From a virus: DNA of 64,000 nucleotides. The translations under genes and the position numbers were made by a program. The stretch is from the IMG/VR virus record IMGVR_UViG_3300027852_000036. One strand, given 5' to 3'. Under the pieces are notes generated by a model, which searched no databases, had not been told where the DNA came from, and saw nothing but the letters and a program-made list of their open reading frames with translations. This document shows positions 26,036-55,061 of this stretch, piece by piece; within the stretch, counting starts at the first letter, position 1, and every line of letters begins with the position of its first letter.

Positions 26036-26758
26036 ATGAACAGATTAGAGAAAATACAAGACAGAGAAACTATGGTGGAATTAGCAGAAATGGTAGATAG
26101 GGTGATTAAGTCGTCAAGTAGTTCATACGATATACCTGCCGTAGTTGAGAGCCTGTGGCCCGCTATAAGCGACCATGGTATTTATCTACATGGTACTAGC
26201 GAGCAGGTAATGGAATCCCTACTGGGTCTCGCCCGTGAACACGGTGAGTGCAAGGACTTAATACATGATATAATTACCGCGGCCGGAGTAATGTACGGGG
26301 CGGACGCAGATAGTTGTTACCTTGTAGAGCACATAGCCCCGTTTTTAAGGACTAGTGAAGAATTAGGACTAGAGTTGAAACAGGCTAGAAAGGAGTTTGA
26401 TTACTTTGTAGGCTCGGAGTGGGAGAAAGACTCCATGTATAAGGCTATCCTAGTACTAGAGGATAGATACTCCTATAGGCGCGAAACAGAAGGCGCTAGA
26501 AAATCTGACTCTTGTAAGTATTGGCTAGTAACTCCTGAAGATATGGACTACTGTGAGGACGAACGGGATTTGGACTATATAGAAGAAGATCTAGAGGGAG
26601 ACTTAGTATTGATTAACGTAAAGATAGCAGAGTTAGAGCTGAAACGAGCTGAGTTAAGAATGAAACAGGCTAAAGAGGAGCTAACTAGCTTACAGCAAGA
26701 ACCCGAGCAAGGTGATTTCAGAAGCTTGCCAATGACAGGGACAGATGATTTAGGATAA
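26036..26758 (+). CDS. Hypothetical protein ending in a copy of the helicase C-terminal tail
   Basis: 240 aa; GGAG RBS; ends DFRSLPMTGTDDLG. Confidence 0.75.
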   Translation: MNRLEKIQDRETMVELAEMVDRVIKSSSSSYDIPAVVESLWPAISDHGIYLHGTSEQVMESLLGLAREHGECKDLIHDIITAAGVMYGADADSCYLVEHIAPFLRTSEELGLELKQARKEFDYFVGSEWEKDSMYKAILVLEDRYSYRRETEGARKSDSCKYWLVTPEDMDYCEDERDLDYIEEDLEGDLVLINVKIAELELKRAELRMKQAKEELTSLQQEPEQGDFRSLPMTGTDDLG

Positions 26759-26767
26759 ACAAATTAA

Positions 26768-26834
26768 ACCCGCCTAGTGCGGGTTTTTTATTGCCTCGAA
26801 TTCGAGACACAAAAAAGCCGCAATTAAGCGGCTA
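26768..26834. terminator. Back-to-back terminators at a convergent junction
   Basis: Plus strand CCCGC-CTAGT-GCGGG-TTTTTT; minus strand GCCGC-TTAATT-GCGGC-TTTTTT. Confidence 0.85.
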
Positions 26835-27041
26835 AGGGTGGTTATTCCATTCTACATCATAATTACCTATCTTATCTACTAAAGGCATTAGGGAGGGGTA
26901 ATACTTCTCTATGTTAACTACGAAAAACACTCCTCCGGAATTCATAACCACCATGTCCTTCTTAGAAGGCTTGTAACGTTTCCCAGCCTTACTAGGGTCT
27001 GGGTTATCTTTACTATAGAAAATCTTAAACTTTTTCCTCAT
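26832..27041 (-). CDS. Hypothetical protein
   Basis: 69-aa ORF, last gene of a leftward unit. Confidence 0.6.
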   Translation of the reverse strand: MRKKFKIFYSKDNPDPSKAGKRYKPSKKDMVVMNSGGVFFVVNIEKYYPSLMPLVDKIGNYDVEWNNHP

Positions 27042-27050
27042 TGTAATACC

Positions 27051-27437
27051 CTATCTAGTTGAGAATGGTTCTAGTATGTCCTGTAATTCTTGTAATAGTT
27101 TTGTTTGCTCTCGCTGTAGTTGGCTAAGCCTAACTACGATGTTCTCTCCTCTAGAGTAGTTTATTGATTCGGCCGATCTTATTAGGATATGGTCGTTGTC
27201 TTCTCCTACGAAGTATTTGCACGTTTCCTTGATTATTTCGTAGACTGTATCAGTATCATCTGATAGTTCCTGTAGTTGTGTAGCGATCTTTTCCTCACTG
27301 CTTGGTGAATGTAGCATATGTATAGCCATTATCGGCCAGAGTTTATAAATAAGCGCTAATCTCTCAGATACGTTGCCCACTCCTAGCTGTAGTGATAGTT
27401 CGTCTGATATGTGCTGAATTATTTGTTGGTTGTTCAT
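27051..27437 (-). CDS. Family C helical hypothetical protein
   Basis: KLWPIMAIH resembles SLWPAISDH of 26036; coiled-coil C-terminus. Confidence 0.65.
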   Translation of the reverse strand: MNNQQIIQHISDELSLQLGVGNVSERLALIYKLWPIMAIHMLHSPSSEEKIATQLQELSDDTDTVYEIIKETCKYFVGEDNDHILIRSAESINYSRGENIVVRLSQLQREQTKLLQELQDILEPFSTR

Positions 27438-27847
27438 AGTAGGCCTCTCAGCAAATCTATCTCGTCCTGAATGTGCTCTTGTTGCTGCCTTAAGTCTTCT
27501 ATTTGTCGAAGTACGTCATTCCGGTCAAAGAGTGCTAGGAGTTCATATAACGGGTGCTTAAAAGGTACTTCATAAAAGGTTAGTGTAGTTCTGATACATC
27601 TCTTGGCTATCTTTGCAGAAGTACCAGACTCCGCGAGAACCTCTAGTATATCCCTCTTTATTTGTTTAAGGTCGCGTTGCTTGGCTACATAACTACCATG
27701 AGCATCTGGCCCGATGTAGTTCCAAATCTCCGAAAGTGTGTGGATACTTTGTAGTATGATCTCCTCCCTAGTACTCTCCACACCTAAGGCGTATTTCCTA
27801 GTCGCAACCTTGAGAGCAATCTGTAATATGTCTTCTATTTGATCCAT
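27434..27847 (-). CDS. Family C hypothetical protein, paralog of 27952
   Basis: EIWNYIGPDAHGSY...KRC...FY...PLYELLALFD. Confidence 0.7.
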   Translation of the reverse strand: MDQIEDILQIALKVATRKYALGVESTREEIILQSIHTLSEIWNYIGPDAHGSYVAKQRDLKQIKRDILEVLAESGTSAKIAKRCIRTTLTFYEVPFKHPLYELLALFDRNDVLRQIEDLRQQQEHIQDEIDLLRGLL

Positions 27848-27951
27848 GGTTCATTGTTCCATTTAGATAAACTAAGCTTTTAGGCTTAGAACGATACTAG
27901 TAGCTTCTACACTCTAGGGCCTTTAGTCGTTTTCGTACCTCTTCCTGTTTA

Positions 27952-28494
27952 TCAAATTTGCCCCGCGTAACCATATAGACGCAAGGCCATAAAGCGTATA
28001 GGAGACCTAGCCGCTTTAGTGATTCTGCCCCCGTAGTCATCATCCATTGCTTGGCTGATATTAGCTATGGCAGCGCTTGCGATTTTATCAATAATCATAA
28101 TCCTTCCTTTAGTGTGTCTATCTCGTTTTGTAGAACTTGACGCCTGTATGTTAAATACTGTATTTTTTTTTACTAAGGTAACTTCTTTGTCAAATAGTGC
28201 CAGCACTCGGTACAGTGGATTACCTCTAGAAACAGCATAAAATTCTAATACCGCTTCGAGACACCTCTTAGTAGTGTTAGCTCCGTAGCCGTAAGATAGC
28301 AGGGCGCTGTGCGTACTGACTAAGTTCGTTCCAATATTATAACCACCATGAGCCTTTGGGCCAATGAGAGTCCACATCTCAGTAAGTGCCACTATGGTAC
28401 TTCCCAAGTTAGCTTCTCTGCTGCTACAGTATGTTGGATATTGTACCTTTACTAAACCCCGCGCAATCTCTACTATGTCTCGTGTGTTTTTCAT
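27952..28494 (-). CDS. Family C hypothetical protein, paralog of 27434
   Basis: EMWTLIGPKAHGGY...KRC...FY...PLYRVLALFD. Confidence 0.7.
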   Translation of the reverse strand: MKNTRDIVEIARGLVKVQYPTYCSSREANLGSTIVALTEMWTLIGPKAHGGYNIGTNLVSTHSALLSYGYGANTTKRCLEAVLEFYAVSRGNPLYRVLALFDKEVTLVKKNTVFNIQASSSTKRDRHTKGRIMIIDKIASAAIANISQAMDDDYGGRITKAARSPIRFMALRLYGYAGQI

Positions 28495-28793
28495 GCTGTT
28501 ACCCCCTCGAATTCTTCTTTAGTTAGTCGTTTACCTTTGATGTAGTACTCTACCGTACCGTCTGGATACTTAATAGCCGGGCCTTTTGTATTATGGTACT
28601 TGTCTTTGCGGAAGTACATCATAGTGTTATTGGCTAAGTAAACTGCTGGGCCTTCTTTTCTATCAAGTTTGTCTTTGCGAAACCAGTAGGTGTCTCCATT
28701 AGTCATTACAATAGCTGGGCCGCCTTTACGATGTCTCTTGTCTTTGTGGTACCAGAATGTACCAAACCTGTTCTCTACTACTGTATACTTCAT
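28491..28793 (-). CDS. Family B LHRxDGPA-repeat protein (3 repeats)
   Basis: HRKGGPAI, DRKEGPAV, HNTKGPAI; ends YYIKGKRLTKEEF. Confidence 0.75.
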   Translation of the reverse strand: MKYTVVENRFGTFWYHKDKRHRKGGPAIVMTNGDTYWFRKDKLDRKEGPAVYLANNTMMYFRKDKYHNTKGPAIKYPDGTVEYYIKGKRLTKEEFEGVTA

Positions 28794-28799
28794 TTTCTT

Positions 28800-28864
28800 T
28801 TCCTTTAATTCTCGATTTCAGAATATATTATACTCAATTAAGCTATGATTGTAAAGAATTAAAA
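28800..28864 (-). promoter_or_regulatory. Cassette copy 1: early promoter plus leader/RBS (no terminator)
   Basis: TTTACA (28855-28850)-N17-TATAAT (28832-28827), leader TGAAATCGAGAATTAAAGGAAAA. Confidence 0.9.
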
Positions 28865-28885
28865 TCATATTCACTTGTTTCTCCT

Positions 28886-29311
28886 TTAAATTATGTAGTC
28901 TTCAAATTCTTCTGAGTACGTGTAGGTTGCCTCTCGGCTAAAGAACCCTACGCTATCAAAGTCGTTGGGAACTCCTCGATCTAGCATATAAAGAATGCGC
29001 TTAGCAGCTCCGTGTGCCGTATCATCTACCTCCGACCAACTACTTGAGAAACACCACTCCCACTCTCGTGCGTATATACCTTTGATAAACACTCGCTCAG
29101 AGTAGTCAGGCCAGTACTCTCCTACCTCTATTGGAATTCCTGCGTAAGGCCCATGACCTACAGCACATGCCGTAGTTCCGCACTCATGTCTAGTGATGGG
29201 GGCGAATCTACTTTCTCTATCTTGACTGTAGTTATACATTCCGAAGTGACCATACCCTTCTGGTAGCCCGCTCAAATAGTAAGCTAATGTCGTAAGATTT
29301 TCAATGTTCAT
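28886..29311 (-). CDS. Family A protein, tandem copy 1
   Basis: 141 aa; CGTTACAVGHGPYAGIP; AAGGAG RBS. Confidence 0.8.
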   Translation of the reverse strand: MNIENLTTLAYYLSGLPEGYGHFGMYNYSQDRESRFAPITRHECGTTACAVGHGPYAGIPIEVGEYWPDYSERVFIKGIYAREWEWCFSSSWSEVDDTAHGAAKRILYMLDRGVPNDFDSVGFFSREATYTYSEEFEDYII

Positions 29312-29322
29312 TTGTTTCTCCT

Positions 29323-29748
29323 TTAAATTATGTAGTCTTCAAATTCTTCTGAGTACGTGTAGGTTGCCTCTAGTCCAGAGAACTCTCCGCCCTCAAAGTC
29401 GTTGGGAACTCCTCGATCTAGCATATAAAGAATGCGTTTAGCAGCCCCGTGTGCCGTATCATCTACCCCTACCCAACTACCAGAAAAACACCACTTCCAC
29501 TGTCGTGTATATCGGTCTTTAATAAACACTCGCTCAGAGTAGTCAGACCAGCGCTCTCCTTTGTTTATTGGAATTCCTGCGTAAGGCCCATGACCTACAG
29601 CACATGCCGTAGTTCCGCACTTGTATCTAGTGATGGAGTCGAATCTACTTTCTCTATCTTGATTGTAGCTATACATTCCGAAGTGACCATACCCTTCTGG
29701 TAGCCCGCTCAAATAGTAAGCTAATGTCGTAAGATTTTCAATGTTCAT
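29323..29748 (-). CDS. Family A protein, tandem copy 2
   Basis: 141 aa; 116/141 identical to copy 1. Confidence 0.8.
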   Translation of the reverse strand: MNIENLTTLAYYLSGLPEGYGHFGMYSYNQDRESRFDSITRYKCGTTACAVGHGPYAGIPINKGERWSDYSERVFIKDRYTRQWKWCFSGSWVGVDDTAHGAAKRILYMLDRGVPNDFEGGEFSGLEATYTYSEEFEDYII

Positions 29749-29975
29749 TCCGTCTCCTCCAGGAATTTAGCAATGTGGTCTAGGGACAGGCCTTCGTCGT
29801 CCTTCCTAATTACGATGCCGTTCTCTAGCTGTACTTGATCGCCTCCCTCAAAACCGTAAAATACGTCCCAATCTATGTATCCTTCCATATCTTCGATAGG
29901 TAGGAACATTAGCCCATCTGGTAAACTGTCCGAATAATCAGCTAATATTCTCAAGTTCTGTCTGTGTAGTTTCAC
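29745..29975 (-). CDS. Acidic hypothetical protein with a family A-like N-terminus
   Basis: NLRILADYSDSLPDG resembles NLxxLAxYLxxLPEG. Confidence 0.6.
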   Translation of the reverse strand: MKLHRQNLRILADYSDSLPDGLMFLPIEDMEGYIDWDVFYGFEGGDQVQLENGIVIRKDDEGLSLDHIAKFLEETE

Positions 29976-29980
29976 TTGTT

Positions 29981-30071
29981 TTTCCTTTAATTCTCGATTT
30001 CAGAATATATTATACTCAATTAAGCTGTGATTGTAAAGAATTAAAACACAAAAAACCCGCAATTAAGCGGG
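29981..30071 (-). promoter_or_regulatory. Cassette copy 2: terminator + early promoter + RBS
   Basis: CCCGCTTAATTGCGGG-TTTTTT, then TTTACA-N17-TATAAT and AAGGAAAA. Confidence 0.9.
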
Positions 30072-30656
30072 TTTGACTCTATTAAATTCTTTTTCTGTGT
30101 AGTGGTTTCCTTGTAAATACCAGTATAAATTACCGGAGTTTGTACTTACTGCTGGGCCATCTGTTCGGTGTATCAAACCTTTTCTATAGTACATAAAACC
30201 TCCGCCCTTATAGGTTACAGCAGGGCCGTATGCGCAATGTATTTTACCTTTCCTATAGCGGTAGCACGCTCCTTGTGGGTTAAAGATAGCGGGGCCTTTC
30301 TTACGGTGCAGTTTGCCCTTACGGTAGTATCTCTCGTATCCACTAGTCTGAACAACCGCAGGACCGTCCTTACGGTGTAGCTTACCCTTACGATAGTACT
30401 TAACGTACTCGCCTGTGCAAACAGCTGAGCCACCTTTGCGATGCAATCTATCATCCTTATACCAAGCATAAGCTCCGCTAGGATACTCTATCGCAGGCCC
30501 ATCTAGGCGGTGCAGTTTTCCATACTTATACCAATACTTTATCCCATCAGCTGTAATTACAGCAGGGCCATTCGGATTATGTAATACACCTTTTAGCATC
30601 CATTTAACGCTACCATCGTTACCGACCTTTACAGTGTACTCATCGTATGTAGTCAC
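30063..30656 (-). CDS. Family B LHRxDGPA-repeat protein (7 repeats)
   Basis: About 23-aa repeats; ends WYLQGNHYTEKEF. Confidence 0.75.
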   Translation of the reverse strand: MTTYDEYTVKVGNDGSVKWMLKGVLHNPNGPAVITADGIKYWYKYGKLHRLDGPAIEYPSGAYAWYKDDRLHRKGGSAVCTGEYVKYYRKGKLHRKDGPAVVQTSGYERYYRKGKLHRKKGPAIFNPQGACYRYRKGKIHCAYGPAVTYKGGGFMYYRKGLIHRTDGPAVSTNSGNLYWYLQGNHYTEKEFNRVKPA

Positions 30657-30901
30657 TTTGAGCCTCTATATATGTTAATACTATTGTCTGCACTAGCTTC
30701 TAGATCTTCTAGCCGTGTTACAAGTCCCAGAGTCACGCCACAGTCTAAGGCGTATAGTTCATGCACTACAGCTAGAGCCCTTACCAAGGCGTCTGTAGTA
30801 TCTTGGTCACTAGCTAGACCTAGTGACCCCTTAAGTCCCTGCAAAGATGTGTTATCTTTTAACTTTGCGCATACTGCTTCTGCAATATCAAGTCTGTTCA
30901 T
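30653..30901 (-). CDS. Hypothetical protein
   Basis: 82 aa, first gene after cassette 3. Confidence 0.6.
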   Translation of the reverse strand: MNRLDIAEAVCAKLKDNTSLQGLKGSLGLASDQDTTDALVRALAVVHELYALDCGVTLGLVTRLEDLEASADNSINIYRGSK

Positions 30902-30907
30902 TTACTT

Positions 30908-30998
30908 TTTCCTTTAATTCTCGATTTCAGAATATATTATACTCAATTAAGTTGTGATTGTAAAGAATTAAAACACAAAAAACCCGCAATTAAGCGGG
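30908..30998 (-). promoter_or_regulatory. Cassette copy 3: terminator + early promoter + RBS
   Basis: Near-identical to copy 2. Confidence 0.9.
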
Positions 30999-31289
30999 GT
31001 ATTTTTGATAGAACTCTTCTTTTGTGTATTGCTTATCTTCAACCCAATACTCTTCTACATTTGGCCCTTTAACAGCTGGGCCGTCTAGCCTATGTAGTTG
31101 GTCGTGCATCAACCACATCTTCGTACCATCTGCTAGAACAATGGCTGCCCCTTCGGGGTTATGCTTCTTCCCGTTAAGGAACCAATACTTAGAACCACTA
31201 TTCGTTACAGCGGCAGGCCCGCCCTTTCGATGCAGTTGGTTTTGCTTATTGAGCCAGAAAGTGCCATTGGCCTTACGCCTCTTAGCCAC
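30990..31289 (-). CDS. Family B LHRxDGPA-repeat protein (3 repeats)
   Basis: LHRKGGPAA, HNPEGAAI, LHRLDGPAV. Confidence 0.75.
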   Translation of the reverse strand: MAKRRKANGTFWLNKQNQLHRKGGPAAVTNSGSKYWFLNGKKHNPEGAAIVLADGTKMWLMHDQLHRLDGPAVKGPNVEEYWVEDKQYTKEEFYQKYPA

Positions 31290-31427
31290 CTAGAGTGCTC
31301 CCATTTCTTTTATCAACTTATCCTGTTTTTTAATATGCTCCCTCTGACTCTGTACTAACTGTATCAGTGATACTATCAGCGGACTAGCCGTATGTCTCTT
31401 TAGCAACCTTTCTAGTAAATTATCCAT
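31290..31427 (-). CDS. Small coiled-coil hypothetical protein
   Basis: Likely start MDNLLERL at 31427, coupled to the upstream ORF. Confidence 0.5.
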   Translation of the reverse strand: MDNLLERLLKRHTASPLIVSLIQLVQSQREHIKKQDKLIKEMGAL

Positions 31428-31593
31428 TGCACAACTCCAGCTCTGATAACCACTCCGATAATAAGTACTCAAGTTCTTCCACTACTATAGAGGTCTCACA
31501 CAGCTCCTCCTCTAGTTGCGTCCTACGCCTAGTCTGCGACTCAATATCTTCAATTAACTTAGTTACTTTAATTTCTATCTGTTCCCTATTCAT
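31420..31593 (-). CDS. Small acidic coiled-coil protein (57 aa), not in the ORF track
   Basis: Hand-translated MNREQIEIKVTKLIEDIESQ...LELCNG; its ATG overlaps the upstream stop. Confidence 0.55.
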   Translation of the reverse strand: MNREQIEIKVTKLIEDIESQTRRRTQLEEELCETSIVVEELEYLLSEWLSELELCNG

Positions 31594-32069
31594 GCTAGAT
31601 TGCCTTTGCTTGTATAAACGCGACCATACGCGATTTTGTAATGTGAATCAATGTCCTCAAAGTCTTCAGGATACTGGTATTTTGAAAAACTTAAATCATC
31701 CTCTAGGAAGTTCGCTGGAATGCCTTTAACGACCATGTACAGAATGCGCTTAGCTGCCCCGTGCGGAGTATCGTCTATACTGGCCCATCCTGGGGAAAAA
31801 CACCACTCCCATTCAGGAGATAAGCTATAGCTAATGAAATTCCTAGCTGAGTATATGATCCAAGGCTCGTCTGGTTTTGAGGGGATGCCTGCAAAAGGCC
31901 CATGCCCGATAGCGTCCCCACACGTACCATAAAACTCATCTAGACTAGCTGGGCAGTATTCCTTGAAAGCTGGGTGACTATTGTAGCAAGACATGTCAAA
32001 GTACATACATGCGTCATCTAGCTTCAGTAAGTAGTTTGCTAGTTTTAGTAAGTTATGTTCGTTAACCAT
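31590..32069 (-). CDS. Family A protein
   Basis: NLLKLANYLLKL...FDMSCY...CGDAIGHGPFAGIP...WCFSPGWASIDDTPHGAAKRI. Confidence 0.75.
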   Translation of the reverse strand: MVNEHNLLKLANYLLKLDDACMYFDMSCYNSHPAFKEYCPASLDEFYGTCGDAIGHGPFAGIPSKPDEPWIIYSARNFISYSLSPEWEWCFSPGWASIDDTPHGAAKRILYMVVKGIPANFLEDDLSFSKYQYPEDFEDIDSHYKIAYGRVYTSKGNLA

Positions 32070-32446
32070 CGTGTTCTCCCTAAGTCCTTTCTGTAGAAAA
32101 TACGAATCTTTATCTCGTATATAAGCCTACAACTCTCTACTCCGTTTAAGAAATACCTAGCCGGTGCCGCATTGGTGCGGGGAATAGCCGGGCCACCTAC
32201 TCTATGTAGTAATCCCTCCCTATACCACATAGTATCTCCATGTATATTAGTAACAGCCGGCCCCTCTACCCTATGTAGCCTACCTTTGTGATACCACTCC
32301 TCTACCTCTATACTAACTACCGCAGGGCCGTCATCTCTGTGAAGCCTGCCGCCTAGGTAGTGTCTATCACAACTATACTTACCTGCTTCGTCTCGCAACA
32401 CTTCCGCCCTAGAACCTAAAGATTCGTCTATTTCACTAGTGGTCAT
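32045..32446 (-). CDS. Family B LHRxDGPA-repeat protein (3 repeats)
   Basis: LHRDDGPAV, LHRVEGPAV, LHRVGGPAI. Confidence 0.75.
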   Translation of the reverse strand: MTTSEIDESLGSRAEVLRDEAGKYSCDRHYLGGRLHRDDGPAVVSIEVEEWYHKGRLHRVEGPAVTNIHGDTMWYREGLLHRVGGPAIPRTNAAPARYFLNGVESCRLIYEIKIRIFYRKDLGRTRWLTNITY

Positions 32447-32868
32447 TGTGAGCCCCTAGAGCAGATTACCATATCATCACCTACGAAACGAACTCGAACT
32501 CTTGGTTTGCTGGCACGCTTGAAATCTTCTTCAGTGTACCTAACGCCCCTTATATAGTAACGTTCGTGACCATTAAAGCTGCAAGCTGGGCCATCTAGTC
32601 GATGGCGAAGTCCGTCCTCTATATAGGAGAAACTACCATGAGGAGATTCAACCGCTGGGCCACCTATTCGATGAGCGACATCTTTGTAGTACCACTCTGT
32701 AACCCCTCCAACATACTCAACTGCTGGGCCACCTGCTCTGCTAAGCTGACCGTGGATATAATACTTCCTAGTACCTTGTGAAGTAATATAGGCCGGCCCA
32801 TCTGGGTTATGTAGCCTACCTTCATCATCGTACCATCTGATACCGTATACATCATTAACTATCTTCAT
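32443..32868 (-). CDS. Family B LHRxDGPA-repeat protein (4 repeats)
   Basis: LHNPDGPAY, LSRAGGPAV, HRIGGPAV, HRLDGPAC. Confidence 0.75.
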   Translation of the reverse strand: MKIVNDVYGIRWYDDEGRLHNPDGPAYITSQGTRKYYIHGQLSRAGGPAVEYVGGVTEWYYKDVAHRIGGPAVESPHGSFSYIEDGLRHRLDGPACSFNGHERYYIRGVRYTEEDFKRASKPRVRVRFVGDDMVICSRGSQ

Positions 32869-33260
32869 TTTTGTAGGGCTCCTAATATTTCTACGAAAGT
32901 GTTCAAGTCCTTTTCTTCCCTAATTTTCCTCTTAGCATTTTTTTGCTCATTATGCCTCTTGCTCAGCTCGTCCCACACACTAGTAGATGCGTTCTCACAG
33001 AATCCTGTTGAGCTACTTCTCAGAATTGCCGCTTGCGTATTAGCGTACCAGAAGTCTATAGTACAGGTGCTATACTTAACCTCACATATAGGAGGCGGAC
33101 AAGGTGTTCTACCTCCTGAGCTCCGCTTAATTGCCGCTAAAGTGTATTCTCCTCCAATGTCGATTACTAGTACTGAGCTATTGGGACGAAAGACCTCTTC
33201 TGAGCTACGTACTAGCTTCAACACACTAAATAGTGCTACTGTTACATCTGATTGATTCAT
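32865..33260 (-). CDS. Family D hypothetical protein
   Basis: LxLxxSSEEVxxP...VLVI...LAAI...DFWY shared with the two adjacent ORFs. Confidence 0.7.
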   Translation of the reverse strand: MNQSDVTVALFSVLKLVRSSEEVFRPNSSVLVIDIGGEYTLAAIKRSSGGRTPCPPPICEVKYSTCTIDFWYANTQAAILRSSSTGFCENASTSVWDELSKRHNEQKNAKRKIREEKDLNTFVEILGALQK

Positions 33261-33261
33261 T

Positions 33262-33678
33262 CTAGTAACCTCTTATAATCATTGATAAGTTGCGAAGGTT
33301 TTCTTCTTGCTCCTTCCTGTTTTTAGCGGCAATTAAGTCCTTTTTTCGACCTGAAAATGCCTTACCTATAACTCTGGAGTCGCCCTTATTAAACCCTGCT
33401 GACTTGCTCTGTATTGCTGCAGTAGTACAGTGGTAATACCAGAAGTCTAAGCTATCTGTGCTGCGTACTATACGATACTCGTTGCGACTGGGACTGCCTC
33501 TATTAATAGTAGTAATAGCCGCTAGAACATGGCTGCGGTCTAGTTGGATGACTAATACGCCTGCCTTAGGGCTCAACACTTCTTCCGAACTACTTATCAA
33601 CTGTAAAACCTCGTCCCTTAACTCTTTTGAATAAGATTGTTTCATTTGAATATCCTGTAAGTTGTGTTCGTCAATCAT
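33262..33678 (-). CDS. Family D hypothetical protein
   Basis: QSYSKELRDEVLQLISSSEEVLSP; ends RGY. Confidence 0.7.
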   Translation of the reverse strand: MIDEHNLQDIQMKQSYSKELRDEVLQLISSSEEVLSPKAGVLVIQLDRSHVLAAITTINRGSPSRNEYRIVRSTDSLDFWYYHCTTAAIQSKSAGFNKGDSRVIGKAFSGRKKDLIAAKNRKEQEENLRNLSMIIRGY

Positions 33679-33679
33679 T

Positions 33680-34051
33680 CTAGTAACCTCTCAAAGTGTC
33701 TGAAAATAGGCGAAGACTCGACTCTCGATCCTTTTCGTTTTTTTCGGCAGCTAAGTACTTTCTTCTGTATAAAAGCGCTTTACCTATACATAGAGAGTCG
33801 CCTGTATCAAACCCTGTCAACTCGCTATTACCTAGTGCATCATCCAATTTACACTCCCAGAAGTCTAAACTATCAGGACTATATACGATTTTGAAGCTAT
33901 CTGAAAAATAAGCACAGCGTATAGCTGCTAAAGTGAGTTCACCACTTAGTTTGATGACAAATACCCTCGCTCTAGGACTAAGAACCTTTTCCGCGCTACT
34001 TATCAACTGCAAAACCTCGTCCCTTAACTCTTTTGAATAAGATTGATTCAT
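33680..34051 (-). CDS. Family D hypothetical protein
   Basis: MNQSYSKELRDEVLQLISSAEKVLSP; ends DTLRGY. Confidence 0.7.
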   Translation of the reverse strand: MNQSYSKELRDEVLQLISSAEKVLSPRARVFVIKLSGELTLAAIRCAYFSDSFKIVYSPDSLDFWECKLDDALGNSELTGFDTGDSLCIGKALLYRRKYLAAEKNEKDRESSLRLFSDTLRGY

Positions 34052-34052
34052 T

Positions 34053-34478
34053 CTAGTAACCCCTCAAAGTGTCGCCATCTGTGTAAATACTTTTCTCGTA
34101 ACTGCGGTATTGTTTGAAATACGCTGGAACTCCGCGATCTAACATATACTGAATTCGTTTAGCTGCCCCGTGAGGAGTATTGTCTACTTTAGCCCAGGTA
34201 GCAGAGAAACACCATACCCACTCATCTGATCCTCTGTCTGTGACAAAACATCTACTAGAGTAGTCTTCGAAATCTTCTCCGTCATGTAGTGGAATCCCGG
34301 CGTAAGGGCCATGACCTACCGCGCAGGCGGCTGTTCGGCAATGGCCGTATGTTTCAACTGTATCGCCTGACATATCGTCATCATTGAATACGCTCATTTC
34401 AAAGTGTTCGTAGTCTTCTGGAAGTTCGCTAAGGTAGCGAACTAATGTCTTTAGGTTGGCTGTTTGTAGGTTAGTCAT
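34053..34478 (-). CDS. Family A protein
   Basis: CRTAACAVGHGPYAGIP...WCFSATWAKVDNTPHGAAKRI; ends DTLRGY. Confidence 0.75.
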   Translation of the reverse strand: MTNLQTANLKTLVRYLSELPEDYEHFEMSVFNDDDMSGDTVETYGHCRTAACAVGHGPYAGIPLHDGEDFEDYSSRCFVTDRGSDEWVWCFSATWAKVDNTPHGAAKRIQYMLDRGVPAYFKQYRSYEKSIYTDGDTLRGY

Positions 34479-34483
34479 TTGAT

Positions 34484-47776: not shown

Positions 47777-48876
47777 CCAAGTTTGATGATTCGATATTCA
47801 AAGCAGATAAAAGTCAGTACGCAACGCCTAGTATTTTTCTAGGCGAGGCTGCTGGCCTCTTCGACACTATCCATAAGCCGTTCCCGAAACTGTGGGCACA
47901 CTACAAAACTCTAAAATCCCTAGACTGGGATGAAAATGAGATCGATTATAGTGGGTGCCTAACAGACTTCCAGAACTGCTCAGAAGACATTTACGATGCC
48001 ATGATTAAGACATTAGCATGGCAGTGGGAGGCAGATAGTGTAGCAGCAAATTCCTTAATGGGAATTCTGGCTCCCTTCATCACTTCTAGTGAAGCGTTGG
48101 CCTCTTGGTCTAAGATCGCTGAGAATGAGGTTCTGCATTCCGCTACGTACTCTGAGATAGTAAGGTCGTCTTTTAAAGACCCTGACTCAACACTACAAGA
48201 GATTCTAGAGGTTCAGGAAGCCCTTAGTAGGTTAACCTGTATTGCTAAGGTATGTAATGATGCTTCTAAGGCTGGAGCTGAATACACCCTAGGGCTAGTG
48301 GAGAATGACCAGACGCTATATAATCGGGTTTACCTGTTTATAGTAGCAGTATTCGTACTAGAGAGGATTCAGTTTATGTCTTCTTTTGCGGTTACTTTTT
48401 CTATCTGTGATACGGGCCTGTTCATACCTTTTGGCAAAGCTGTGCAGAAGATCGCACAGGATGAGCTAGAGGTACATGTTCAGATGGGCAAGGACGTACT
48501 ACGGTACGAAGCTCAAACTGACCGAGGTAAGGAAGCTGCCCGCACTTTAGGTAGTGAGGTACAGGCCCTTATTTCTGAAGTAGTGAATGCGGAACTAGAG
48601 TGGGTAGACTTCTTATTTTCTGGAGGAAGGAGCCTAGTAGGACTTAATGCTGATGTACTAAAGCAGTGGGTACTATTTAACGCTAGAGATGTGTATAATC
48701 ACCTTGGGCTAGAGTCTCCTTATGATATGCCTGCTAAAAACCCTTTAAAGTTCATGGAGCATTGGTTGAACATGAATAAAATACAAACAGCCCCTCAAGA
48801 GACCGAGATCACTGCCTACAAGGTAGGTGTTCTTCGCAGAGACGATGAGGATATGGACTTCGAGACAGACTTTTGA
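47764..48876 (+). CDS. nrdB: Ribonucleotide reductase class Ia beta subunit
   Basis: DWDENE, EVLHSATY, LERIQFMSSF, DELEVH, WVDFLF. Confidence 0.95.
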   Translation: MHTMTKFDDSIFKADKSQYATPSIFLGEAAGLFDTIHKPFPKLWAHYKTLKSLDWDENEIDYSGCLTDFQNCSEDIYDAMIKTLAWQWEADSVAANSLMGILAPFITSSEALASWSKIAENEVLHSATYSEIVRSSFKDPDSTLQEILEVQEALSRLTCIAKVCNDASKAGAEYTLGLVENDQTLYNRVYLFIVAVFVLERIQFMSSFAVTFSICDTGLFIPFGKAVQKIAQDELEVHVQMGKDVLRYEAQTDRGKEAARTLGSEVQALISEVVNAELEWVDFLFSGGRSLVGLNADVLKQWVLFNARDVYNHLGLESPYDMPAKNPLKFMEHWLNMNKIQTAPQETEITAYKVGVLRRDDEDMDFETDF

Positions 48877-49132
48877 TATTAATACAGTTTACTTCAGCAA
48901 ACTGCAACCCTTGTTCTGTACTGAAAGCAAGTATGGAACAAGTTCCGCTCCCTAAGGGGGTGGAGCTAGCGGTCGTTAACCTAAATCCGCTAACCCTATG
49001 ACAAGTTCTTATAATGTTAGATCTGTGCCTACACTGATACTGACTACAGGTACTTACGAAGAGGTAGGAAGAACAGCAGGAGCTAAGACTCCTAAGCAAT
49101 TGGAAGATTGGTATAAAGAGATGGGCTTGTAG
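48873..49132 (+). pseudogene. Thioredoxin-like gene split by a -1 frameshift near 48980-48998
   Basis: TTG 48873 gives MILIQFTSANCNPCSVLK...VNLNPLTL-stop (49001); the -1 frame continues ANPMTSSYNVRSVPTLIL...EVGRTAGAKTPKQLEDWYKEMGL-stop (49132). Confidence 0.75.
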
Positions 49133-49219
49133 GTACAGGAAAAGTAATTCTTTACAAAAGCTGCCCAATCAAGTATAATATACATTCAAATCGAGAAATA
49201 AACCAAAGAGGAAAACAAC

Positions 49220-49579
49220 ATGGCACTATGGACTGACGAACTAAAAGCGGAGTTGATTCAGGATTACGTGGATCAAAACCCTACCCCCGAAACATCAACA
49301 TCTATAATCAAAGGGCTGGCAGATAAGTATTCCGGTACCGTAAACAGTATTCGTATTATGCTTAACAAAGCTGATGTATACGTTAAGGTTGCGAAAGCCC
49401 CTAAAGCGAGTGATAATCCTGACGCTCCTCGTCGTGTATCTAAGGCAGATGCTATCGCTGAATTAGTAGCAGCTCTCTCAGATGCTGGCGTAGAGGCTGA
49501 TGATGATATTATCAACAAACTTACTGGTAAAGCAGCTCTGTACTTCTCTACAGCGTTTCGTACTCTTATCAATAAGTAA
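49220..49579 (+). CDS. T5 D3-like HTH DNA-binding protein
   Basis: WTDELKA...PTPETSTSII...RVSKADAIAEL...IINKLTGKAALYF; TTTACA-N17-TATAAT promoter upstream. Confidence 0.7.
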   Translation: MALWTDELKAELIQDYVDQNPTPETSTSIIKGLADKYSGTVNSIRIMLNKADVYVKVAKAPKASDNPDAPRRVSKADAIAELVAALSDAGVEADDDIINKLTGKAALYFSTAFRTLINK

Positions 49580-49602
49580 TCAATCAATAATCGGAGAGCA
49601 GC

Positions 49603-50235
49603 GTGGCTAACAAAAGGGTAAAACTACAAGTAGGTGAGGATTTAAGTAAGGGTAATATAGAACGTGTTCTAGAATACCTTGATACTGAATCTTCCACCAA
49701 GAAAGTAGCCTGTGACATGCTGGGAATCCGGTACAATACTACTCGATTAACAAGAATACTAGAAGAGTATTCGGAGGATAAGGAGCGGTACGCTAGGATT
49801 AGGAAAAAGAAGCGTGGAACTCCTGTACTTAAAGAAGAGGCTTGTTCCATTATTGAAGAATACCTAATACAAAGATCAATGTCTAAGGTAGCTACCATGC
49901 ACTATAGGAGCACGGCTTTAATACGACAAACCCTCATTAAGTATGGGGCTGATCTAGTGGCTGGTAAGACCGACTATTTCAATCCTGAATTGCTTCCAGA
50001 CTTGAGTATGCGGGATTCCTTTGAGAAAGATGAGCTAGTATGGAGTGCTAGGCATAACTGTATCGCTAGAGTACTCGGTCCCGTTAAAGGCGGGTACTGG
50101 GTTTGGGTTCTAGGCAGTAATGCTCAACAGTCTGCTCTGGCAACTGAAGAACTTGGCTCGTTAGAATTACTGACAGAGCTAGGCGTTAATTTGGAGAAAG
50201 TAGCTAACCAGCATGTAGGTGCTGAAAACAACTAA
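49603..50235 (+). CDS. T5-conserved HTH-like hypothetical protein
   Basis: KKVACDMLGIRYNTTRL...GELVWSARH-like segment; replication-module synteny. Confidence 0.65.
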   Translation: MANKRVKLQVGEDLSKGNIERVLEYLDTESSTKKVACDMLGIRYNTTRLTRILEEYSEDKERYARIRKKKRGTPVLKEEACSIIEEYLIQRSMSKVATMHYRSTALIRQTLIKYGADLVAGKTDYFNPELLPDLSMRDSFEKDELVWSARHNCIARVLGPVKGGYWVWVLGSNAQQSALATEELGSLELLTELGVNLEKVANQHVGAENN

Positions 50236-50245
50236 GGTGTAAAAC

Positions 50246-50521
50246 ATGAACAAAGATAACTTTTTACAGAAAATGACGGATTATGGTGATGCAGTAGTAA
50301 CTTATCGTAGCCCTGTATCTAGGCGCTCAAAGTATGTAGTAGGAACTACAGACTTTAATAGCTCAGACTACATTAAGGACAAACGTAAGCCTCGCTATCG
50401 AATACACAATGGGTCAGTTCTAATGTTTTGTTGGGATACCGATACTTTCAAACAAATCGCTGTTTCAGATGTACAGAAGATCGAACCCTTGAGCAAGGTT
50501 ATTGCACATGGAGTTCGTTGA
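50246..50521 (+). CDS. T5-conserved hypothetical protein
   Basis: YGDAVVTYRS...KYVVGTTDF...YI...LMFCWDTD. Confidence 0.65.
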   Translation: MNKDNFLQKMTDYGDAVVTYRSPVSRRSKYVVGTTDFNSSDYIKDKRKPRYRIHNGSVLMFCWDTDTFKQIAVSDVQKIEPLSKVIAHGVR

Positions 50522-50795
50522 AGAGCCGGAGCTGGCTGTAGAGGTATTTCATAACGAGGATAAGTTTGAAAAGGTATTTTTAACTATTAATACCTTCAGA
50601 GGGAAAGAGTACTTCCACATGCGTAAGTACTACTTGGATTTCGAAGGAGACTACCTCCCAACGAACCAAGGAATAGCTTTCCCAGCCTCTCTAGAAACTA
50701 CGGTGGCATTATTCGACTCACTATGCAAGATTCTTAGCGAAAGCGAAGCACTACAAACAGTCTTAGATAATAGTACAATTCTTAACAAGGAATAA
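50508..50795 (+). CDS. PC4/p15-like ssDNA-binding transcriptional coactivator
   Basis: LTINTFRGKEYFHMRKYYLDFEGDYLPTNQGI. Confidence 0.75.
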   Translation: MEFVEEPELAVEVFHNEDKFEKVFLTINTFRGKEYFHMRKYYLDFEGDYLPTNQGIAFPASLETTVALFDSLCKILSESEALQTVLDNSTILNKE

Positions 50796-50797
50796 AC

Positions 50798-51730
50798 ATG
50801 AGCCAATCATTCAAAGAACGATGCGACATTATGTATGATAAGGGTACGCCCATTATTAGTGATGCTCAGTATGACAACCTTTTTGGAGAAGGAGCGACCA
50901 TAGGCAGGCCGGGCTACTCTGAAGATATTAAGCATCCGTTCCAGATGTATTCGCTTCAGAAACACTACACGGAAGACGGCGAACCGCCTATCCCTGTAAA
51001 AGACTGTATAAAGACTCCTAAACTAGACGGGGCGGCTTGCTGCTTAGTTTACATAGACGGAGAGCTTAGTAGGGCAACTACTAGAGGTGATGGTATCGCT
51101 GGTAAGGTAATCACTGAGAAACTGAAACTACTTGTACCTAATAGTATAAAAACTAACGAACCTCTCATTCAGATAACTGGAGAGATCGTGGCACTCGCTT
51201 CCGTGGAGAATTCTAGGAATCAGGCCGCTGGGTCACTAGGTTTAAAGTCTATCGAAGACTTTAAAATCCGTATGGAAGAGATCGGACTGAAATTCATTGC
51301 TTATAGCACTACTAGCATCGAGGCTTCCTATAAACTGAGCCTAGCAGGTTTAGCTCTCAAAGGTTTCAGTACTGTAATAGGAGACTGTTCTGGTTTTCCT
51401 ACAGACGGGGAAGTGTATCGCATAGAGCGTCAGCAAGACTATATAGCTGCTGGTTTTACTAGTAAGCATCCTAAGGGTGCTTTCGCTTGGAAAGAGAAGC
51501 AAGAAGTAGTACAAACCAAACTATTGGACGTAATTTGGCAAGTAGGGAAGTCTGGTAAAGCTACCCCTATTGCCATCTTAGATCCTGTAGTAATCGGGGA
51601 AGCTACAGTAGCTAAGGCAACGCTGAATAATATGGCATTTATTGATAACCTGGGCCTGACACTGGGGTGCACTGTTGAACTTATCAGAGCAGGGGAGATC
51701 ATCCCAGAAATAGTTGGGAGGGCTGATTAA
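50798..51730 (+). CDS. NAD-dependent DNA ligase, adenylation/OB subunit (split ligase A)
   Basis: KLDG, TRGDG, ITGE, PTDG, WQVGKSG, ATLNN, RAGEIIP. Confidence 0.92.
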   Translation: MSQSFKERCDIMYDKGTPIISDAQYDNLFGEGATIGRPGYSEDIKHPFQMYSLQKHYTEDGEPPIPVKDCIKTPKLDGAACCLVYIDGELSRATTRGDGIAGKVITEKLKLLVPNSIKTNEPLIQITGEIVALASVENSRNQAAGSLGLKSIEDFKIRMEEIGLKFIAYSTTSIEASYKLSLAGLALKGFSTVIGDCSGFPTDGEVYRIERQQDYIAAGFTSKHPKGAFAWKEKQEVVQTKLLDVIWQVGKSGKATPIAILDPVVIGEATVAKATLNNMAFIDNLGLTLGCTVELIRAGEIIPEIVGRAD

Positions 51731-51810
51731 TTATAAAAGTTTATGTTGACAAAAGGTTATATTCTTTAGTATAATTACTAAATAGAAAATTAAATCAGGA
51801 AATAATTTAG

Positions 51811-52572
51811 ATGAAAATAGTAGCCCCAACAAAGTGCCCCTGCTGCTCTTTTAAGCTAGAGCTAGTGAAGGATCAACTGTTTTGTAGAAACCCTTCTTGT
51901 GGCGTAGTCAATACAAAGAAAGTGGAAGCCTTTGCTAAGGTTATGAAAATAAAGGGACTTGGCCCAAAGACTGTGGAGAAATTAGGGTTAACAAAGGTAC
52001 CTGATATATACCTCTTAGAGGAGGAGCACATAGTTTCGATAATAGGCGATGCCTTAGGCAAAAAACTATACTCCTCTATAGAGTTCTCAAGGGAAGTAGA
52101 ACTTGGCACTTTCTTTAGTGCACTATCTATCCCATTATTTGGTAAATCAGCAGCATCTAAACTTGCTCCGCTGGTTACTGGATTCGACGATGTATCTAGG
52201 GAAGTATGTAAGAAGGCTGGACTAGGTGATAAAGTTACCGACTCTTTACTTACTTGGATAGATGAAGTCTGGAAAGACATGAATTATAATAGTATAATGA
52301 ACGAACTATCAATCGTAAAGGCTGAGAAGTCTATACCTGTAGAGAATAGAGGAGCTGTAGTCATTACTGGTAAGCTTAATGATTATAAGAACCGTAAACT
52401 AGCGGCTACCTTTTTAGAAAGTAAGGGATTTACCATCAAATCTTCAGTCACTAAGGCTGTAGATTATTTAGTATCAGAGGAGGGAAGGGATTCTTCCTCT
52501 GTTTTAAAAGCAAAAAAGCTCAATATACCGATATTGAGTATAATCGAACTCTTAAACATAGAAAGCAAATAG
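51811..52572 (+). CDS. NAD-dependent DNA ligase, Zn-finger/HhH/BRCT subunit (split ligase B)
   Basis: PTKCPCC...CRNPSC, IKGLGPKT, VITGKL, SSVTKAVDYLV. Confidence 0.92.
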   Translation: MKIVAPTKCPCCSFKLELVKDQLFCRNPSCGVVNTKKVEAFAKVMKIKGLGPKTVEKLGLTKVPDIYLLEEEHIVSIIGDALGKKLYSSIEFSREVELGTFFSALSIPLFGKSAASKLAPLVTGFDDVSREVCKKAGLGDKVTDSLLTWIDEVWKDMNYNSIMNELSIVKAEKSIPVENRGAVVITGKLNDYKNRKLAATFLESKGFTIKSSVTKAVDYLVSEEGRDSSSVLKAKKLNIPILSIIELLNIESK

Positions 52573-52583
52573 GAAAGTAAAAC

Positions 52584-53309
52584 ATGGCAAAACAAACTTG
52601 GACTGACGAACGAACTGCTCACCTCACCGGTCTCGTAGAAGAGGGTGTTGAAGTAACTCAGAAAGACTTGGCGGGTATCGCTGAGGAACTTGAGACTTCA
52701 ACTCGATCAGTTGGTAGTAAGCTCCGTAAAATGGGGTACGATGTAGAGAAAGTATCTGCCACTAACACACGTAAGTGGACTCCAGAACAGGAAAGTGACT
52801 TAGTAGATTTTCTAGGTGAAAATCCCGGTTCTTATACGTTCCGAGAAATTGCTGCACTGTTCCACTCAGGACATTTCTCTAGCAAAGCTATTCAGGGCAA
52901 GATCCTTAGCCTTGAGTTGACTGGCTCTGTCAAGCCTGCTGAAAAGGTTGTAGCGGCCCGTCAGTACACTGAAGAGCAGGAATCTGTATTCTTGGCTATG
53001 GCTAAGAAAGGGGACTCTGTAGAAGCTATCGCAGAAGCTATGGGTAAGTCTCTCCAGTCTGTTCGTGGTAAAGCACTCAGCTTCATCCGAACTGTTGAAG
53101 GCTTTAAAATGCCGCATCAAGAAACCTCAACCGCTGCTTCTAAAGAAGACGCTATCTCAGGTCTCGGCGATATTTCTGGTATGACCGTAGAAGACATTGC
53201 TTCTGCAATTGATAAGACTCCACGAGGTGTTAAGACTTCTCTTACACGTCGAGGACTTACCTGTGCAGATTACGATGGCGCAAAACGTGCAGCTAAGCGC
53301 AAAGACTAG
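52584..53309 (+). CDS. D5: T5 D5-like DNA-binding transcription regulator
   Basis: Repeated HTH units; WTDER...RSVGSKLRKMG, KAIQGKILS, SVRGKALS, RGVKTSLTRRGL...DYDGA. Confidence 0.85.
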   Translation: MAKQTWTDERTAHLTGLVEEGVEVTQKDLAGIAEELETSTRSVGSKLRKMGYDVEKVSATNTRKWTPEQESDLVDFLGENPGSYTFREIAALFHSGHFSSKAIQGKILSLELTGSVKPAEKVVAARQYTEEQESVFLAMAKKGDSVEAIAEAMGKSLQSVRGKALSFIRTVEGFKMPHQETSTAASKEDAISGLGDISGMTVEDIASAIDKTPRGVKTSLTRRGLTCADYDGAKRAAKRKD

Positions 53310-53329
53310 GTAACTCTAGTAGTTAAGCC

Positions 53330-53360
53330 AAGGGAGGGCCTGAAAAGGCCCTCCCTTTCT
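53330..53360 (+). terminator. Hairpin terminator after D5
   Basis: AGGGAGGGCC-TGAAAA-GGCCCTCCCT followed by TTCT. Confidence 0.7.
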
Positions 53361-53380
53361 AGGTACAAGGAGGCGGTAAT

Positions 53381-53683
53381 ATGAAAGTAACAGTAACATA
53401 CACAGAAGACGGGGCATTAACTCCCGAAGAGCTTAAAGCCTCTGTAAAAGCTAGGGTAGGTGGGATGGCAGGAGTAACAATATCTCCCGATTCAAATGAC
53501 CCCTATCATTTAATGTATTTTGCAGCCCAAGAGCTGATAACAGTCCAACAGTTAGATTCTTTTTATGATGATAGTCAGGAGCTGTACCACGTTAAACTAA
53601 AAAAGTTTATAGAAGAAGCAGAAGACTTAGCACGTAGTGCTATATTACAAGTAATTCAAGATAACGAGACGAAGATGACTTGA
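53381..53683 (+). CDS. Hypothetical protein
   Basis: 100 aa; AAGGAGG RBS. Confidence 0.65.
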   Translation: MKVTVTYTEDGALTPEELKASVKARVGGMAGVTISPDSNDPYHLMYFAAQELITVQQLDSFYDDSQELYHVKLKKFIEEAEDLARSAILQVIQDNETKMT

Positions 53684-53684
53684 T

Positions 53685-55061
53685 ATGATTGACCTAGAAG
53701 GGGTAGTATTAGCTAAATTGCTTTCTGAATCTCCCGAGGTTGAACACTACGCTAAGTTAAAGATGGGCTTCTTTTCAGAAATGTATAAGCCTATATACAG
53801 AGCAGTAGTTCGAGTATATCAAACAACGGGCGAGGTGCCTTCCTTTGATACCTTGGAAGTTTTAGTTAAAGACGCTGAATTACAGAACGGGTTGGCTGCC
53901 CTTAAATCTATAGAGCTACCGAACGTCGACCTGGACTTAGCCATTGAGGGTTTGACGGATAAGTACGCACAAACAGAGGCTTTAACCAGTATAGACTCAT
54001 TCCTAGATAAAGTAACGATGTTGAACACTATAGAGATTAAAGAATCACTATCTATGTTAGCGTTGGAACTCGATACCAAGTTACATACGTCAGAAACGGT
54101 AGTATACGCGGATCAGATCCACTTATTCAGAACACAGGAAGAGGACAATCTGGCTAGAATTCCTACAGGCATTAGCAACGAATTTGACGCTAAGGCTGGC
54201 GGATTCTTTAATGAAGATTTAATACTATTAGGTGGTAAGCGAGGAGCAGGTAAATCCTTAGTATGTGCCAACCTAGTAGCTTCTCAATACAAATTAGGCA
54301 AGGTTAGTGTTTACTATACCATCGAAATGTCGAGAGAAGAAACATTAGGGAGAATAATCTGTATATTGGCTAATGTTAGTCATAGTAACTACAGGTTAGG
54401 CGAGCTAAGTAATGAAGAGAAAGTAGCTCTAGCAAAGACACGTAGCGGGATGTTCCTAGGTGCTGACGAGGTTTTAAATGCCTTTATAGCCTCTACGGAG
54501 AAAGACTTGGTAGAGTTTGAGAATGTCTTATTGGATACGTTCGAACTTAATCCGGTTAAACAGATTGTAGTAGTGGATGACAGAGACTTGAGCTTATCTA
54601 GTATAGATCTTACATTACAGAAGTTCAGACTACAGTATAAAGAAAACTTATCATTGGTGGCGATCGACTACCTTAACCAGATTGTATTAGAGAGTTCAGT
54701 TGACCAGTACGACTGGAAAGATCAAATACTGATAAGTAAGCAATTAAAGAATCTTGCTAGGAAGTACGAACTTCCAATTGTTAGCCCGTTTCAGATTGAC
54801 GAATCAGGGCAGGCTAGATTCTCTAAAGGTATTCTTGATGCTTGTGACGTTGCCTTTAATCTAAGCGCAGATGAGCATATAGAGCTGAAGGTTGTGAAAG
54901 CTAGATCCTTTAATGATTCACACACTTTCATACAGCCAATGAATTGGGAGACATTAACTATGGACAATAAGACTATAGAAAGGCCGAAAGAGCCTGAAGA
55001 AGGGGCAGAAGATGGCGGATTCAGGGGACTACCAATGGCTGGGACGGATGACTTAGGATGA
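53685..55061 (+). CDS. DnaB-like replicative helicase (T5 D6-like)
   Basis: IPTG, GGKRGAGKS, YTIEM, IDYLNQI, SPFQID, FSKGILD. Confidence 0.9.
   Translation: MIDLEGVVLAKLLSESPEVEHYAKLKMGFFSEMYKPIYRAVVRVYQTTGEVPSFDTLEVLVKDAELQNGLAALKSIELPNVDLDLAIEGLTDKYAQTEALTSIDSFLDKVTMLNTIEIKESLSMLALELDTKLHTSETVVYADQIHLFRTQEEDNLARIPTGISNEFDAKAGGFFNEDLILLGGKRGAGKSLVCANLVASQYKLGKVSVYYTIEMSREETLGRIICILANVSHSNYRLGELSNEEKVALAKTRSGMFLGADEVLNAFIASTEKDLVEFENVLLDTFELNPVKQIVVVDDRDLSLSSIDLTLQKFRLQYKENLSLVAIDYLNQIVLESSVDQYDWKDQILISKQLKNLARKYELPIVSPFQIDESGQARFSKGILDACDVAFNLSADEHIELKVVKARSFNDSHTFIQPMNWETLTMDNKTIERPKEPEEGAEDGGFRGLPMAGTDDLG

Follow-up and report, generated by a model that had tools for sequence, protein, structure and literature searches.

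The DnaB-like replicative helicase of an uncultured, distant T5-like phage and a second, otherwise unrelated protein of the same phage, E240, end in closely similar peptides. Here, we argue that the helicase has a flexible docking peptide at its C-terminus, of which the last ~14-20 residues of E240 are probably a working copy, and we describe comparable pairs of helicase and early-protein tails in other T5-like phages. The DNA analysed, called the window below, is the whole 64,000-nucleotide stretch of IMG/VR record IMGVR_UViG_3300027852_000036. It is part of the phage genome, encodes a T5-type small terminase and a T5 dNMPase, and carries a replication module with the gene order of T5 (D5-D6-pri-pol-T5.123-D10-T5.125-D11-D12). 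The two genes and their tails lie as follows.

26036..26758, + strand: E240, a 240-residue acidic open reading frame (ORF) product of isoelectric point (pI) 4.5, an ORFan without Pfam match, PHROG match or homologue.
26699-26713, + strand: EPEQG linker of E240, just upstream of its tail codons.
26714..26755, + strand: the 14 tail codons of E240 (DFRSLPMTGTDDLG), from the sequence and the codon test.
53685..55061, + strand: DnaB-like replicative helicase, homologue of T5 D6 (PF03796, DnaB_C, 1.3e-20).
55017..55058, + strand: the 14 tail codons of the helicase (GFRGLPMAGTDDLG), with the acidic linker KEPEEGAEDG in front.

E240 ends in ...QQEPEQGDFRSLPMTGTDDLG (...EPEQGDFRSLPMTGTDDLG), and the 458-residue helicase in ...KEPEEGAEDGGFRGLPMAGTDDLG (...EPEEGAEDGGFRGLPMAGTDDLG). 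Eleven of the last 14 residues are identical, and with the EPExG linker included the identity is 15/24, with a four-residue gap where the helicase has an insertion (AEDG) that separates EPEEG from GFR. BLASTP found no similarity between E240 and the helicase beyond the tail. An earlier reading of the sequence alone had pointed to the 11/14 identity, to EPExG before both tails and to the lack of any other relationship between the proteins, all of which the translations and the BLASTP comparison bear out. The 14-mer contains three Asp and one Arg (net charge -2), downstream of an acidic linker, with Leu as the penultimate residue and Gly as the last. We compared the C-terminal 14-mers of all 185 ORFs of the window with one another (17,020 pairs). 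The score of E240/helicase is 59 (mean, -12.5; standard deviation (sd), 7.9), which makes this pair a 9-sd outlier; the sole pair with a higher score is a pair of whole-length tandem paralogues (28886/29323). E240/helicase is the only strong non-paralogous tail match in the window, and chance is excluded. No third copy of the motif was found in the six frames of the window or in the flanks of the window that we could add from this phage (~25 kb), and a degenerate DNA pattern for ...PMxGTDDLG-stop gave 0 matches in IMG/VR. The end of E240 also contains LPMTG, reminiscent of the LPXTG signal of sortase substrates. This reading was rejected: between LPMTG and the stop there is nothing but TDDLG, E240 has neither a signal peptide nor a hydrophobic segment, and the equivalent on the helicase is LPMAG. 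We take the resemblance to a sorting signal as coincidental.

At the DNA level, the two tails are identical at 31 of 42 nucleotides. The four synonymous differences listed in the sequence-only reading (AGA/AGG, TTG/CTA, ACA/ACG, GAT/GAC) are all present. At 14 of 20 aligned codons, both genes specify the same degenerate amino acid, and at 6 of these 14 positions they use the same codon, as compared with 4.9 expected from phage codon usage (P = 0.36). Since synonymous sites are randomised while the residues are kept, the amino-acid identity is upheld at the level of the protein; what is conserved is the peptide and not the DNA, as had been proposed. This codon pattern excludes a chimeric assembly or a recent duplication of the DNA, and points either to convergence or to purifying selection acting on the two peptides. 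The DNA of E240 is identical in four independent contigs from three sources (ENA, JGI, Logan).

The helicase matches T5 D6 at 7e-74, is 38% identical to the helicase of Vibrio phage pVp-1, contains the Walker A sequence GGKRGAGKS, and is syntenic with primase and polymerase as in the D6-pri-pol order of T5. The tail lies past the region that can be aligned to cultured T5-like helicases (query 1-442) and outside the conserved RecA core. All helicases of the family have a variable tail after this core; most of those from T5-like phages end in D-[LI]-P-W-x-x, close to the C-terminal tip of bacterial SSB, the protein that binds single-stranded DNA (SSB-Ct), and others end in acidic residues followed by L, I or V. 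The closest relatives of the window helicase (59-70% identical) end in ...PEEPEEEES..ARTKQGDDV, ...ARTKKADDL and ...ARVKSGDDI, and more distant ones in ...LEGEDDL and ...LQTGEDDL. Because relatives carry such ends, an acidic EPE linker and a G-x-DD-[LIV] end are ancestral in the helicase lineage, and for this reason the helicase looks like the donor of the tail and the E240 peptide like a helicase-derived one. Features specific to this phage, the FRxLPMxG stretch and the extra terminal Gly, are also present on E240.

E240 is the second gene of a two-gene operon, the surroundings of which are as follows.

24656..24685, + strand: sigma-70-like promoter, TTGAAT-18-TATAAT with an extended -10 TG, 5′ of E415-E240; a consensus match only.
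24720..25967, + strand: E415, a 415-residue ORFan ending ...LRKDIG, first gene of the operon.
26766..26786, no strand assigned: bidirectional intrinsic-terminator-like hairpin, 8 nucleotides past the E240 stop.

The hairpin closes the operon against a convergent early block on the minus strand. E240 has a strong Shine-Dalgarno sequence (AGGAG, with the ATG 7 nucleotides downstream). The E415-E240 unit is flanked on one side by the T5-like pre-early block, with the dNMPase gene and a cluster of repeats, and on the other by the minus-strand early block; the T5 map has no genes at the equivalent position. E240 is presumably an early protein, judging solely from this position. Searches with E240 returned only self-hits in a 5.8e9 word search, a full HMMER search over 1.84e9 representatives, IMG/VR, GenBank phages and the ESM Atlas. 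E415 likewise gave only a self-hit in the 5.8e9 word search and has no Pfam or PHROG match, and no homology was detected between E240 and E415. E240 seems to consist of a helical N-terminal part, a region rich in acidic residues at 161-200, a helix spanning 196-220 and, from 221 to 240, a disordered tail; the helices and the tail are those of a single-sequence AlphaFold2 model. With a predicted local distance difference test (pLDDT) score of 48, and 0.47 for the Atlas model, these models are too poor for a fold search; the tail is flexible in the AlphaFold2 model, being coil from residue 221 after the better-defined helix 196-220.

Three minus-strand ORFs lie just beyond the hairpin (27051-27437, 27434-27847, 27952-28494), and a W..IGP.AHG.Y motif can be aligned in the second and third of them. 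We considered E240 as a paralogue of these ORFs and rejected the idea, as the only match was a marginal one by phmmer, between 27051 and the N-terminal part of E240 (E = 0.02 in the 185-ORF database). Homology of the three ORFs with E240 or with each other is not established.

Does the helicase tail recur on other proteins in other phages? We took 17 genomes (15 long IMG/VR records of T5-like phages, T5 and the window) and asked in each which ORF tail most resembles that of the helicase. For the null, all ORFs of 150 or more residues from these genomes served as queries in turn (n = 990 queries). The only pairs with a z of at least 5.6 were terminal-repeat copies, paralogues and three pairs of helicase and early protein.

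G002: helicase ...DSDIPWDV, early protein ...ASNDIPWDF (334 residues), z 7.3.
Window: helicase ...GLPMAGTDDLG, early protein ...SLPMTGTDDLG (E240, 240 residues), z 6.5.
G006: helicase ...KEDLPW, early protein ...IEDMPW (282 residues), z 5.6.

The early proteins of G002 (IMG/VR 3300048672_000524, 55659-56663; L110:17659-18660) and G006 (3300033072_000473, 79004-79852; L138:3004-3849) are homologous, and their genes lie at the pre-early/early border. By jackhmmer they belong to a family, which we call A4 after its alignment, with members in eight genomes (G001, G002, G006, G007, G009, G010, G011 and G015). The members are 238-368 residues long and share the core motifs YSSLVPL.MA..K and QIW.AHP..R..MILDP.DWD. 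Their tails resemble those of the cognate helicases in further genomes, as in G009 (..TTGLW versus ..GEGLW) and G015 (..LEDDPW versus ..SDLPWESK). The cognate tail score averages 17.0, versus 11.9 for permuted pairs, and no derangement reaches the observed value (exact permutation P = 0.005, a P value that still contains the phylogenetic non-independence of seven related genomes). In 4 of 7 genomes the A4 member is the best match to the helicase tail genome-wide. The family has no Pfam or PHROG match, and the G002 member, used as a tblastn query, found no match in GenBank phages. Its fold model is good (pLDDT 78), with a disordered C-terminal tail. Foldseek found no match for this fold in the PDB and VIA-align found only generic helical hairpins; the fold matches in BFVD are two uncharacterised phage proteins only. 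A4 is an undescribed family of early proteins, with tails that track the tail of the cognate helicase.

E240 resembles the A4 members in two traits, a tail that mirrors the cognate helicase and a position at the pre-early/early border. Comparison of A4 with E240 by hhalign gave a probability of 0.08% (0.14% with E415), and an hmmsearch with A4 of all six frames of the window gave a best E of 0.75. The same tail-copy trick thus appears on non-homologous proteins. From the presence of the cognate helicase tail on proteins of different folds in different T5-like phages, it would seem that these phages repeatedly use early mimicry of the tail to control the replisome or to exploit it.

The phage SSB, another protein with an acidic tail, allows a further comparison.

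60947..61672, + strand: phage SSB, homologue of T5 D11 (phrog_1607; T5 D11 match), with the acidic tail ...NDDDDDLPGFDGGDFDS.

The end of this protein, DDDDDLPGFDGGDFDS, is of the same general kind as the helicase tail (DDL, GG-F) without being a copy of it. SSBs of the D11 type end in ...E-A-V-N-[DE]-L-x, in ...DDIP[YMQA] or similarly, and some in NDLG or NELG. In T5 (NC_005859), D6 (68109-69617, ..GEQASDI) and D11 (76001-76774, ..QEAASDLDD) are reciprocal best tails among 430 ORFs, a relationship found in this one genome only. A permutation test over 34 non-redundant T5-like loci detected no cognate-specific similarity between helicase and SSB tails (P = 0.72), which rules out the use of helicase-SSB tail covariation as proof of a common hub. 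The T5-like record G011 (the IMG/VR record behind L035), whose helicase ends in ..TDIPWN, also contains a 134-residue ORF (1753-2157) that ends in ..DDSWDDDIPF, a perfect bacterial SSB-Ct tip.

How might a copy of the helicase docking peptide on E240 work? The helicase tail would belong to a class of acidic, hydrophobic-tipped tails carried by T5-like helicases and SSBs. E240 would have acquired a tail of the helicase type, with selection keeping the two peptides matched, and would be expressed from its own promoter at the pre-early/early border. If some partner has a pocket for the helicase tail, E240 would offer the same peptide early in infection and, as a mimic with a role in timing or regulation, compete with the helicase for binding there; alternatively, E240 may use the same handle for its own recruitment to the same hub. 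We infer that the peptide binds something, that both bearers share one site, and what the receptor may be. Because the tails are likened here to those of T7 gp4 and gp2.5, the family-A polymerase would be the first candidate, and by this analogy it is the receptor we favor; the helicase ring itself or a host protein that is a client of SSB is also possible. The helicase, or a partner specific to it, is as plausible a receptor as the polymerase, because the copies of the tail follow the helicase and not the SSB.

56536..58830, + strand: family-A DNA polymerase, homologue of T5 pol (phrog_17, 9e-144; alignment A3), prime candidate receptor of the tail by analogy with T7.

A number of points weigh against reading the end of E240 as a docking peptide. 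The analysis yielded no receptor. Co-folding of residues 201-240 of E240 with the polymerase as sole partner (38-row alignment A3) gave an ipSAE of 0.02, a value that counts neither for nor against binding. The sequence-only reading had proposed a shared docking motif for a replisome partner; recurrence and covariation with the cognate helicase in other T5-like phages speak for the motif, and no partner of the kinds it named (polymerase, primase, host factor) was found. E240 has no orthologues, so its tail cannot be traced through evolution. Moreover, E240 is not detectably related to A4, which makes recurrence an argument by analogy, and the covariation within A4 comes from the related genomes already mentioned. 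Nor do the data support, across the family, a single hub of the T7 kind for helicase and SSB. Finally, constraints at the DNA level may shape part of the very end of E240 (L-G-stop).

Three other explanations of the shared tail deserve consideration. The tail may bind the helicase itself, with one subunit of the hexamer docking on a neighbouring subunit or the N-terminal collar, and E240 and the analogous A4 family would plug this site as loader, brake or inhibitor instead of sharing an outside partner with the helicase. We regard this as unlikely. It is in keeping with the observations that the tail copies always follow the helicase version rather than that of the SSB, and that helicase and SSB tails do not covary, as would be expected if the receptor co-evolved with the helicase alone; however, any receptor specific to the helicase tail would explain the data equally well. 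In addition, helicases of the DnaB type are not known to have a self-docking tail. Still less probable, in our view, is that the two proteins share the tail as a tag for degradation or turnover, by which both would be sent to a ClpP-like protein or a host AAA+ unfoldase and their levels would be regulated jointly. Degrons are typically terminal, exposed peptides, and the replisome module of this phage, like that of its closest relatives, indeed contains a ClpP-like gene (55922-56533, PF00574, 4e-8). Yet G002 and G006 copy the tail as well, and phmmer, which matched a ClpP-like protein in six loci in all, found no such gene in their 21-kb helicase loci (L026, L015). Moreover, helicases of this family have acidic, hydrophobic-tipped tails, which resemble the docking tails of SSB and helicase, not the non-polar tags of the ssrA type, and a replicative helicase would be an odd obligate substrate for a protease. 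A degron is possible, and we consider this reading weaker than docking.

The third explanation, which we hold to be about as improbable as a degron, is that the match is a functionless by-product. Illegitimate recombination or a gene-junction cassette would have placed the 3′ end of the helicase gene on E240, where it would have persisted by chance or through constraints on DNA or RNA, such as a ribosome-binding site (RBS) or translational coupling. Two observations can be cited in its favor. The helicase stop codon overlaps the start of the primase gene (GGATGA). Furthermore, the 3′ ends of E415 and E240 (25953-25974 and 26744-26765) share GAT(A/T)TAGGATAAACAAATT, identical at 20 of 21 nucleotides and comprising the last three codons, the stop and 9 nucleotides of flank. 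This common stretch, the reason that E415 too ends in D-I-G, resembles the local RBS-start cassette TAGGAGAAACAAATG (26024-26038) and looks like a decayed copy of it. A purely DNA-level by-product is nonetheless unlikely, because sharing of DNA is limited to the last three codons and the 3′ flank, and is with E415. Against it also stand the 11 of 14 residues kept while synonymous sites differ as far as codon usage allows, and the independent phages that show the same habit with different peptides.

A docking peptide copied from the helicase can also be given a broader interpretation. T5-like phages may encode dedicated helicase-tail mimics of unrelated folds, E240 and the A4 family among them, which are made at the pre-early/early border and act as a timing switch or decoy. 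Such mimics might occupy the receptor of the helicase tail until assembly of the replisome is due, or, if some host factor recognises the tail (a defence sensor or a protease adaptor, for instance), might protect the helicase from it. We offer this as speculation with rather low odds of being correct; if it is true, independent recruitment of the tail by non-homologous proteins would amount to a general control principle of T5-like phages. To our knowledge, replisome assembly in these phages is poorly understood, the D6 helicase has no interaction map, and most early genes have no known function. In this setting, a 14-residue peptide carried by both the helicase and an early protein is a usable bait for the receptor. 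More generally, a short linear motif at the terminus can be enough to propose a function for an ORFan that can be tested.

Several other features of the replisome module and its surroundings may be of interest. Directly 5′ of the helicase gene, a 100-residue acidic protein (53381-53683), conserved in 35 T5-like loci, has a C-terminal motif that is likewise conserved, V-[IV]-x-D-N-E-x-K-[VI]-[TSA], and could act as partner or loader of the helicase. The ClpP-like gene described above lies between those for primase and polymerase, a position that it keeps in the nearest relatives, L084 and L087, and that is without it in T5. Overlapping the polymerase stop is the gene (58827-59333) for a 168-residue homologue of T5.123 (phrog_4386), the sole strongly basic protein of the module (pI 9.7), with a conserved basic end, ..DTWRK[IV]. 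This protein is a candidate receptor for acidic tails or accessory factor of the polymerase. The polymerase ORF itself is unbroken in the window and in L086. In L084 (12825-15477) and many IMG/VR loci, including L007, L010, L019, L024, L026, L027 and L033, it is broken at one conserved site, right after ..RQAAKAISFGIN, which suggests a recurrent insertion point for an intron, intein or homing endonuclease. Past the right end of the window, in the same phage, a flap endonuclease of the D15 type (PF02739/PF01367; L099:9472-10308) ends in ..GSNDI. In G003, an unannotated ORF just upstream of the dUTPase gene, the place of the flap endonuclease in the window phage, ends in ..IINELD, resembling the ..MNELED of the G003 SSB. 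Acidic, L/I-tipped tails may be present on the flap endonuclease as well.

The replisome tails of phage T7 offer the closest comparison with a known docking system. In T7, the tails of the helicase-primase gp4 and of the SSB gp2.5 are acidic and Phe-tipped and dock on basic patches of the polymerase gp5, that of gp4 on the same patch as that of gp2.5. The acidic tail of gp2.5 anchors on the front basic patch of the DNA polymerase (PMC12339929). Both T7 and the phage of the window have a family-A polymerase. As in T7, a short, flexible peptide, arguably acidic and hydrophobic-tipped, is found at the C-terminus of the helicase and on a second, unrelated phage protein, and in both E240 and the helicase it is the extreme C-terminal, flexible peptide outside the folded domain. 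Unlike T7, the second bearer is an ORFan of the early region rather than the SSB. The peptide of the window, FRxLPMxGTDDLG, is also longer, is only mildly acidic and ends in Leu-Gly instead of Phe. Helicase and SSB of the window do not carry the same tail, that of the SSB being only generically similar, and the polymerase would serve as receptor here by analogy alone.

The tails can likewise be compared with bacterial SSB-Ct (DDDIPF), which has many docking partners among genome-maintenance proteins and in which an acidic run and a hydrophobic tip on a disordered tail form a handle for a hub. The likeness is close in other T5-like phages, most of whose helicases end in D-[LI]-P-W-x-x and several of whose SSBs end in DD-I-P-[YMQA]; the tails of the window end in T-D-D-L-G and, unlike SSB-Ct (D-D-D-[IL]-P-F), have no Pro-aromatic tip. 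The A4 family is like E240 in its border position, in its lack of a known domain and in its disordered tail that copies the cognate helicase. It differs in having Trp at the tip of its tails, as do the helicases of the same phages, and in showing no detectable homology to E240 or E415. The tail copy may be viewed as a variation on the T7-type principle of the C-terminal docking tail, in which the second bearer is an early ORFan or a member of an undescribed early family.

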